From positions 58,590,001 to 58,654,000 of the forward strand of contig OX597815.1 of the NCBI GenBank assembly GCA_951406725.2: a stretch of 64,000 nt of DNA, written 5' to 3'. The translations under genes and the position numbers were made by a program. This document shows positions 29,596 to 30,501 of the stretch, one piece after another. The DNA comes from Octopus vulgaris. Taxonomy: Eukaryota. Each line of letters opens with the position of its first letter. Position 1 is the stretch's first letter. The notes under the pieces are model-generated. The model was not told the DNA's origin. It ran no database searches and saw only the letters and a program-made list of their open reading frames with translations.

Positions 29596-29770
29596 TAAAA
29601 TTAACAGTTATCACCAAGCTAATTATGGCAGTCCATAAATATAAGACTAAAGCTTCCGTTCATTAGCTCCAAGAGGCCATCGCCTCTAGCTAGCTATATG
29701 ACACACGAACCTGTGTCCATTATAACTTTCGAACAGGGGAGGTCAGCCGCTTCCCCTTGCTGGTCAGATA

Positions 29771-29813
29771 TCTGCAGACATGTTTCAGAGTATTTGCCCT
29801 TTATCAATGCAGA
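29771..29813 (-). ncRNA. Minimal hammerhead-like motif, U3-A8 core
   Basis: Minus strand reads UCUGCA-UUGAUAA-AGGG CAAAUA CUCU-GAAA-CAUG-UC-UGCAGA. Confidence 0.7.
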
Positions 29814-30030
29814 GTAGCCAGACCCAACAGGTGTCGCTGCCGACCGTCTGTTCGAAGGATTATTTACCTAATTTCAGTGGAATACATGCACTAGTTTTCA
29901 AAAATAGAAACATTAGTGTCTCTAAAGGACACTACGGCAGTGGTACTGGAATTTAACAGTTATCGCCACTGAAATTAGGTAAATAATCCTTCGAACAGAT
30001 GGTCAGCAGCGATGCCTGCTGGGTCTGGCT

Positions 30031-30074
30031 ATCTGCATTGATAAGGGCAAATACCCTGAAACATGTCTGCAGAT
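30031..30074 (+). ncRNA. Minimal hammerhead-like motif, U3-A8 core
   Basis: AUCUGCA-UUGAUAA-GGGCAAAUACCCU-GAAA-CAUG-UC-UGCAGAU. Confidence 0.7.
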
Positions 30075-30501
30075 GTCTGACCAGCAAGGGGAAGCGGCTG
30101 ACCTCCCCTGTTCAAAGGTTATAATGTACACAGGTTCGTGTGTCATATAGCTAGCTAGAGGCGATGGCCTCTTGGAGCTAATGAACGACAGCTTTAGTCT
30201 TATATTTATGGACTGCCATAATTAGCTTGGTGATAACTGTTAATTTTCAGTACCGCTGCCGACATATACATATATATATGTATATATATACATACATATG
30301 TATATATATACATATATATGTATATCTATACATACATATATATATATATATACATACATTTATATATATATACATACATATATTTATATATATAAAGTTA
30401 ATCCAAACAAGAAAACACAGAAAAAAAGAGGAAAAAACACAGCAACGCAGGACGTGGAACAATTAAAGTATTATTGACGCTCAGGAAAGAAGGGAAGGAG
30501 A

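Follow-up and report, generated by a model that had tools for sequence, protein, structure and literature searches.

The described systems closest to the octopus locus presented here include: (i) the non-LTR retrozymes of metazoans (Cervera and de la Pena 2020, PMC7229834), which in mussels form repeats of 350-390 bp, (ii) the Cercyon Penelope elements of Schistosoma, for which minimal U3-A8 hammerheads with about 1,300 matches are reported (PMC4209133), and (iii) other natural U3-A8 hammerheads, of which several examples are reported, with swaps of the 3-8 pair active in vitro as a class (Perreault et al. 2011, PMC3088659). Penelope elements were named in 2020 as candidate movers of animal retrozymes (PMC7229834), and a preprint (10.64898/2026.07.22.740005) adds phylogeny and describes its own life-cycle evidence as limited. 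Inverted 5'-truncated arms, tails and a bias towards microsatellites are features of Penelope insertions (10.1101/2021.04.23.441226). The Poseidon element of anoles, as described in PMC11167929, nicks AT-rich DNA and derives its tail from two internal start sites of reverse transcription (RT); it inserts in vitro without ribozyme cleavage, its hammerhead mutants are unimpaired and its ribozyme cuts only with protein. Further background literature includes PMC6765202, PMC7151607 and PMC6155905.

The locus lies in a 64-kb stretch of Octopus vulgaris DNA (the window, i.e., the whole stretch analysed), and its parts are listed in Table 1. What had been annotated initially as a single 352-nt unit, homologous to 719-1081 but diverged, comprises two copies within 29598-30262: a full unit (B1) and an inverted partial copy (B2), joined head to head. 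The homology is confirmed, with 79.6% identity between 29602-29915 (subfamily B) and 720-1031 (subfamily A) over 319 columns (E 4e-68), and both B1 and B2 are about 80% identical to 719-1081. The unit length of 352 nt follows from the start-to-start spacing (29598 to 29950), the corresponding length in subfamily A is 361 nt, and the GC contents are 0.43 and 0.40. B1 and B2 are 95% alike across 283 columns, carry the hammerhead motif on the minus and plus strand, respectively, and meet at a 5'-to-5' inversion junction at about 29966-29968, where CC is common to both arms. The RNA-sense 3' end of B1 forms the left border of the insertion and adjoins a TA/CA microsatellite; on the other side, the tail of B2 corresponds to the start of the next unit, past the end point of B1, and is followed by a TA/CA microsatellite. 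Together with its microsatellite, the insertion lies at the 5' portion of a LINE ORF (28901-29549, minus strand) that is endonuclease-like and for which a Pfam search returned no match. Rfam matches to microRNAs at 29794-30048 are rejected as an artefact of the inverted repeat, and a tRNA-derived SINE reading is rejected as no tRNA was found in the search.

The arms of the B locus would pair into one long hairpin (~280 bp, computed fold of -537 kcal/mol). As the two motifs are on opposite strands, a read-through transcript would form this hairpin, likely without cleavage; given also the 5% difference between its arms, the B locus itself is likely an inert, decaying, dead-end insertion. Compared to B1, B2 is missing one A from the run that follows the core, and one C immediately 5' of stem I. 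The A1 copy is without one G where B2 is without one A, such that in both the base of stem II is missing one purine. B2 also disrupts one pair of the enclosing stem, which had been annotated as kept and is kept in the B1 fold. The A insertion has tandem units in head-to-tail order at 719-1304, their type I motifs being on one strand, in contrast to the opposite-strand motifs of the B locus. In the inverted arm of subfamily A, an internal deletion at 1448-1450 (unit positions 119-233 gone) removes the hammerhead.

Table 1. Coordinates of the two insertions and their parts in the window.
Feature	Position	Strand	Basis or remark
Subfamily A insertion	719..1626	.	two tandem hammerheads on minus strand, U3 at 922 and 1283
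Copy B1, one full 352-nt unit	29598..29953	-	similarity and repeat search
Long imperfect stem around B1 hammerhead, closed by UUCGAACAG/CUGUUCGAA arms	29728..29855	-	fold z -3.0
B1 type I hammerhead motif	29771..29813	-	descriptor match
Start of next tandem unit, 15 nt	29954..29968	-	ends at 5'-to-5' inversion junction
Copy B2, inverted 5'-truncated arm	29966..30247	+	95% identical to B1
B2 hammerhead motif	30032..30073	+	U3 at 30038; predicted cut between 30067 and 30068
B2 tail, 14 nt	30248..30261	+	inverted-repeat comparison

A hammerhead descriptor in which position 3 may be C or U and position 8 may be G or A has four matches in the whole 64 kb, and these are the four copies of the unit motif (U3 at 922, 1283 and 29807 on the minus strand and at 30038 on the plus strand). 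Looser descriptors run on shuffled sequence gave no match in five shuffles and one match in 20 shuffles. All four copies form a three-way junction with stem I open and stems II and III closed, a type I layout, with 6 bp in stem I, 3-4 bp in stem II and 2 bp plus a palindrome in helix III. In B1, stem I pairs 29813-29808 with 29776-29771, the core extends from U3 (29807) to A9 (29801), GAAA occupies 29786-29783, the helix III palindrome ACAUGU occupies 29783-29778, and the cut is predicted between 29777 and 29776. In RNA sense, the elements of B1 are UCUGCA (stem I), the core UUGAUAA, AGGG CAAAUA CUCU (stem II with its loop CAAAUA), GAAA, CAUG, UC and UGCAGA (stem I).

Compared to the consensus core (C3 U4 G5 A6 N7 G8 A9, G12 A13 A14 A15, U16 H17), U3 and A8 replace C3 and G8 in all four copies, where they form a Watson-Crick U-A pair, while the remaining 10 core positions are as in the consensus. 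The initial annotation read the core as changing from UUGAAAA to UUGAUAA at position 7 only; the letters are correct, but the change of pair 10.1-11.1 from G-C (A2) to A-U (B1) was missed. Thus, subfamily B combines two departures from the consensus: U3-A8 and A10.1-U11.1. No copy has a hammerhead match in Rfam at the gathering score or at E values up to 10. The UAC before stem I and the U after it, putative bases of the loop I/loop II tertiary contact, are kept in A1, A2 and B1, and the C is lost in B2.

The ACAUGU palindrome is too short for a stable hairpin, yet self-pairs at -4.6 kcal/mol (computed), a helix III layout given for the dimer-cleaving type I hammerheads of animals (PMC4209133, PMC3088659). 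The family is likely to cleave itself as a dimer, and a cleavage assay of 30031-30074 as a monomer alone would likely give a false negative.

The unit shares with metazoan retrozymes, as described in PMC7229834, an ORF-less tandem unit within 170-400 nt, a GC content under 45%, a well-folded RNA, many copies, a single type I hammerhead with short helix III in each unit, and coexistence with Penelope elements. By contrast with the retrozymes of that source, the unit carries U3-A8 (plus A10.1-U11.1 in subfamily B) and has no Rfam match; its copies here are dispersed, inverted, tailed and inserted in TA repeats, and its cleavage and circular RNA are putative. With Cercyon, the unit shares U3-A8 in the many copies of an animal retroelement as well as predicted dimer cleavage. 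According to PMC4209133, however, the Cercyon motifs are minimal, with 4-5 bp in helix I, 7-8 bp in helix II and a base left unpaired after position 9, and are tied to an RT ORF, whereas the octopus unit has canonical helix sizes and is ORF-less and tandem. The examples of PMC3088659 are similar in the compensatory 3-8 pair (neutral/compensatory class) and in the palindromic helix III of repeat-type motifs, but are scattered, whereas here a whole repeat family has the swap. The U3-A8 swap is therefore a rare but already described variant, and not new. In the literature, covered mostly at the level of titles and abstracts, neither a U3-A8 retrozyme family nor inverted tailed retrozyme insertions were found, although such a family could be present in the alignments that supplement the papers of 2014 and 2020 and the preprint.

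The anatomy of the insertions is the less expected and more useful part of the comparison. In both insertions of the window (A and B), the truncated arms meet at their 5' ends, the outer ends correspond to RNA-sense 3' ends, and TA repeats flank the insertion on either side. The left end is at a common unit position, 175 nt (A) and 179 nt (B) past the predicted cut, while the right ends extend 65 nt (A) and 14 nt (B) further as tails. An inverted 5'-truncated arm, a tail at one end and AT-rich or microsatellite targets are likewise described for Penelope and Poseidon insertions (10.1101/2021.04.23.441226; PMC11167929), and the Poseidon of Anolis is described as having an internal RNA end point that lies past the hammerhead cut (PMC11167929). 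The octopus insertions differ from these sources in that there is no ORF and in that the tails are 14 and 65 nt compared to 30-40. In public sequencing runs (see below), the TA repeat directly precedes the common unit end in 31 contigs of run X1 and 14 contigs of run X3, and joints of unit end to unit start occur in X1 (29965 to 29624) and among the loose ends of runs X10 and X13. Copies that span the unit junction would imply a template that is circular or multimeric rather than a linear monomer running from cut to cut.

This anatomy also raises the alternative that the unit is simply a terminal repeat belonging to an autonomous Penelope element outside the window, with the insertions being truncated Penelope copies and no independent retrozyme existing. 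U3-A8 was first reported in the Penelope hammerheads of Schistosoma (PMC4209133), and retrozymes are related to Penelope terminal repeats according to the preprint (10.64898/2026.07.22.740005). Against this, units are joined end to start with no ORF between them at 719-1304 and likewise at 29950-29968, the longest ATG ORF in 29598-30262 is 58 aa, and the helices (I, 6 bp; II, 4 bp; III, 2 bp) are of canonical and not minimal size (PMC4209133), such that this alternative appears improbable. No ORF with RT and GIY-YIG domains is found in or between the units at either insertion, and a GIY-YIG domain is present elsewhere in the window. Homology between the unit and Penelope terminal repeats was not detected within the 64-kb window.

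The reading preferred here, and regarded as probable, is that the unit belongs to a family of non-LTR retrozymes. The source copies of this family would undergo self-cleavage as dimers, and a Penelope-like RT would copy them into TA repeats. In the proposed mechanism, tandem source arrays would be transcribed and neighbouring motifs would pair via the 6-nt palindrome (ACAUGU, ACGCGU or ACUAGU), cut after GUC and free monomers. A host ligase would close the monomers into circles, or uncut multimers would be used directly. A Penelope RT/GIY-YIG protein would then nick AT-rich DNA, and reverse transcription would begin internally, at a fixed RNA position ~175-180 nt downstream (3') of the cut, and pass the unit junction to yield inverted truncated arms with a tail. 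Selection would act on the source copies, and the fold would thereby be kept.

Selection on the fold, and with it a functional U3-A8 trait, was claimed in the initial annotation from compensatory changes, and that interpretation is partly upheld. Subfamilies A and B differ at 56 of 301 sites outside the motif and at 8 of 44 inside it; thus, the motif is no more conserved than its flanks, but its changes are tolerated ones. When drift is simulated 400,000 times at the rate of the flanks, 0.42% of trials retain the full set of core, palindrome and stems I and II (P about 0.004), while the core alone is retained in 6.4% (P 0.064), which is not significant. When pairs predicted within a single subfamily are checked in the other across the whole unit, double-sided compensations occur at 4 of 94 and 5 of 81 pairs compared to null means of 1.45 and 1.37 (P 0.049 and 0.008, under a null model that takes no account of clustered changes). 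This signal is modest. In the same test, pairing is lost at 14 of 25 and 12 of 24 of the changed pairs, and in one direction the antisense strand performs equally well or better (P 0.008, double changes). Assignment of the strand through covariation thus failed, and the strand rests on the hammerhead motif.

The individual compensations that were cited are less telling than the initial annotation proposed. The change of stem I from GCUGCA/UGUAGC to UCUGCA/UGCAGA is correct in its letters; of its two changes, that at 2.6-1.6 is double-sided, and the other, G-U to G-C, affects one side. The stem III palindrome is kept in the change from CGCG to CAUG; however, 7 of the 16 CpG sites of A1 read TG or CA in B1, so CpG decay suffices for this change and selection is not needed. 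The pairs of the AGGC/GCCU hairpin are kept as stated, but as they are unchanged in all four rows, they provide no covariation signal. Taken with the motif retention, the whole-unit test and, as described below, the CUAG loop state and the core positions free of listed variants, the comparison supports a fold under selection in the source copies of the family. U3-A8 itself, as read from its presence in all four copies, is a family trait that predates the subfamily split rather than decay of the B copy; a catalytic function, the other half of the original claim, is putative, and conservation of the core alone is not significant.

Better support is provided by related copies in public sequencing runs. 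Contigs of 4 of the 24 runs listed (X1, X3, X10 and X13) were aligned to 29598-29965 (at least 80% likeness, at least 4% share). The aligned contigs number 3075 and 3431 in X1 and X3, which are DNA-type runs, and 68 and 50 in X10 and X13, which are presumed to be RNA runs. No run contained half of the words of the unit, and the runs may thus be from other individuals or species. The contigs are short, diverged ones are clipped, and contigs do not convey strand, ends or circles. The copies are many and dispersed. In all four runs, 29780 A>T occurs with 29781 T>A at matching depth (7653/8225, 8097/8063, 12.9/12.9 and 27.7/27.7), which converts the helix III loop to CUAG, a state also present in loose ends. 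As CUAG requires two transversions, it is beyond the reach of CpG decay, and a micro-inversion is rejected as its origin since an inverted palindrome stays identical. All three helix III loop states (CGCG, CAUG and CUAG) are palindromic.

Among the 40 of 81 variants that are listed, eight are in the 43-nt motif, none at the 12 core positions and none at the inner 10 positions of stem I. The placement of the listed variants gives P 0.0014 for the core plus inner stem I, a combination chosen post hoc, and 0.054 and 0.16 for the core alone, which is not significant. The lowest best share of a listed variant is 22%, and the other 41 are probably rarer. Since all eight T>C places of X1 are among the listed variants, a change of A8 to G8 is under 4% of depth in that run; a C3-G8 subfamily could nevertheless be hidden among the clipped or unlisted variants. 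The change 29789 A>G is almost fixed, and the stem II of the family is thus AGGG/CCCU, with a loop II that varies (40%). Deletion in the A run is not among the listed variants, so the missing A of B2 is not the family state. In stem I, U2.6 is replaced by G in 65% (X1, 42 contigs) and 17% (X3) of the depth, and the listed variants include no partner change at 1.6; thus, the double-sided compensation proposed for stem I involves a pair that is loosely maintained. Pair 10.1-11.1 is disrupted in one X10 contig (78 of 107 depth), and one loose end of X13 has a disrupted core. An RNA-editing signature is rejected, as A-to-G changes (RNA sense) are without clear excess (8 versus 8 places in X1). Joints in X1 and X13 lead from 29686 back to 29606 across 26 other letters and may represent a subfamily that is shorter or rearranged. 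A pattern scan of metagenome contigs gave six matches, all without stems or unit homology and taken as chance, and a scan of viral contigs gave none.

These data bear on whether the family is instead a fossil satellite, in which U3-A8 has a single origin in an ancestor that was dead or dying, and CpG decay, chance and shared ancestry account for the seeming covariation. The change from CGCG to CAUG fits such a history, the full comparison covers only two subfamilies, and the B locus, with arms 5% different, is itself decaying. Drift would, however, retain the motif in only the 0.42% of trials noted above, and the CUAG loop, the variant placement and the many dispersed insertions that share a precise end are all at odds with a fossil, which is thus considered very improbable.

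A further alternative, judged unlikely though the strongest of the three in probability, is that the fold is selected as a signal to the Penelope protein, for recognition or for folding; the ribozyme with U3-A8 would then be slow or inactive, and uncut multimers would serve as template. Consistent with this, anole Poseidon inserted despite hammerhead mutations and its ribozyme depended on protein (PMC11167929), Penelope hammerheads are described as poor cleavers in vitro (PMC4209133), and 8 of 9 Xenopus dimers tested in the retrozyme preprint did not cleave (10.64898/2026.07.22.740005). In the octopus window, the insert ends are off the cut site, conservation of the core alone falls short of significance, and all eight hammerhead-like motifs depart from the consensus core (four with U3-A8, four with C4). 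By contrast, the three palindromic helix III loops suit selection for a dimeric active fold, and the listed variants spare the 12 core positions. Self-cleavage of source copies as dimers is retained as the preferred, probable reading.

The insertion anatomy provides a physical footprint, countable genome-wide, that bears on which autonomous element moves animal retrozymes. As a high-copy U3-A8 family is invisible to Rfam and to C3-G8 descriptors, counts of animal retrozymes are probably too low. A broader proposal is tentatively advanced: that a large, still-selected retrozyme family is built entirely on a U3-A8 (plus A10.1-U11.1) hammerhead, that its insertions are a direct record of a Penelope RT starting at a fixed internal site on its circular or multimeric RNA, and that the lineage may favour damped, protein-dependent hammerheads genome-wide.

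The surroundings of the insertions are of an animal type and consist of long TA-type microsatellites and retroelement ORFs with endonuclease or RT domains, and for two retroelement ORFs of the window the nearest named proteins are invertebrate retroelements (~45% identity). Regions 23479-24430 and 4815-6131 are copies of one Penelope-like 3' end with a terminal repeat that is 91% alike, and the 23479 copy opens with an inverted piece of its tail. The Penelope-like ORF of these copies has no Pfam match, and a protein search identified five relatives at 39-45%. Four more hammerhead-like motifs with C4 (CCGANGA) and a palindromic helix III are located at 4971 (minus), 24348 (plus), 30532 (minus) and 60258 (plus), of which those at 4971 and 24348 come after the Penelope-like ORF ends. 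In these two (24348-24390, plus strand; 4971-4929, minus strand), an extra base precedes GAAA, and the core CCGAAG is complementary to a CUUCGG in its own long loop II, a pairing that possibly represents a switched-off fold. The motif at 60258 is carried by a head-to-head inverted insertion (60120-60394) with 105-nt arms that are 95% complementary and a ~65-nt tail between TA runs; thus, a minimal motif of the C4, Penelope type occurs in an insertion with a layout like that of A and B.
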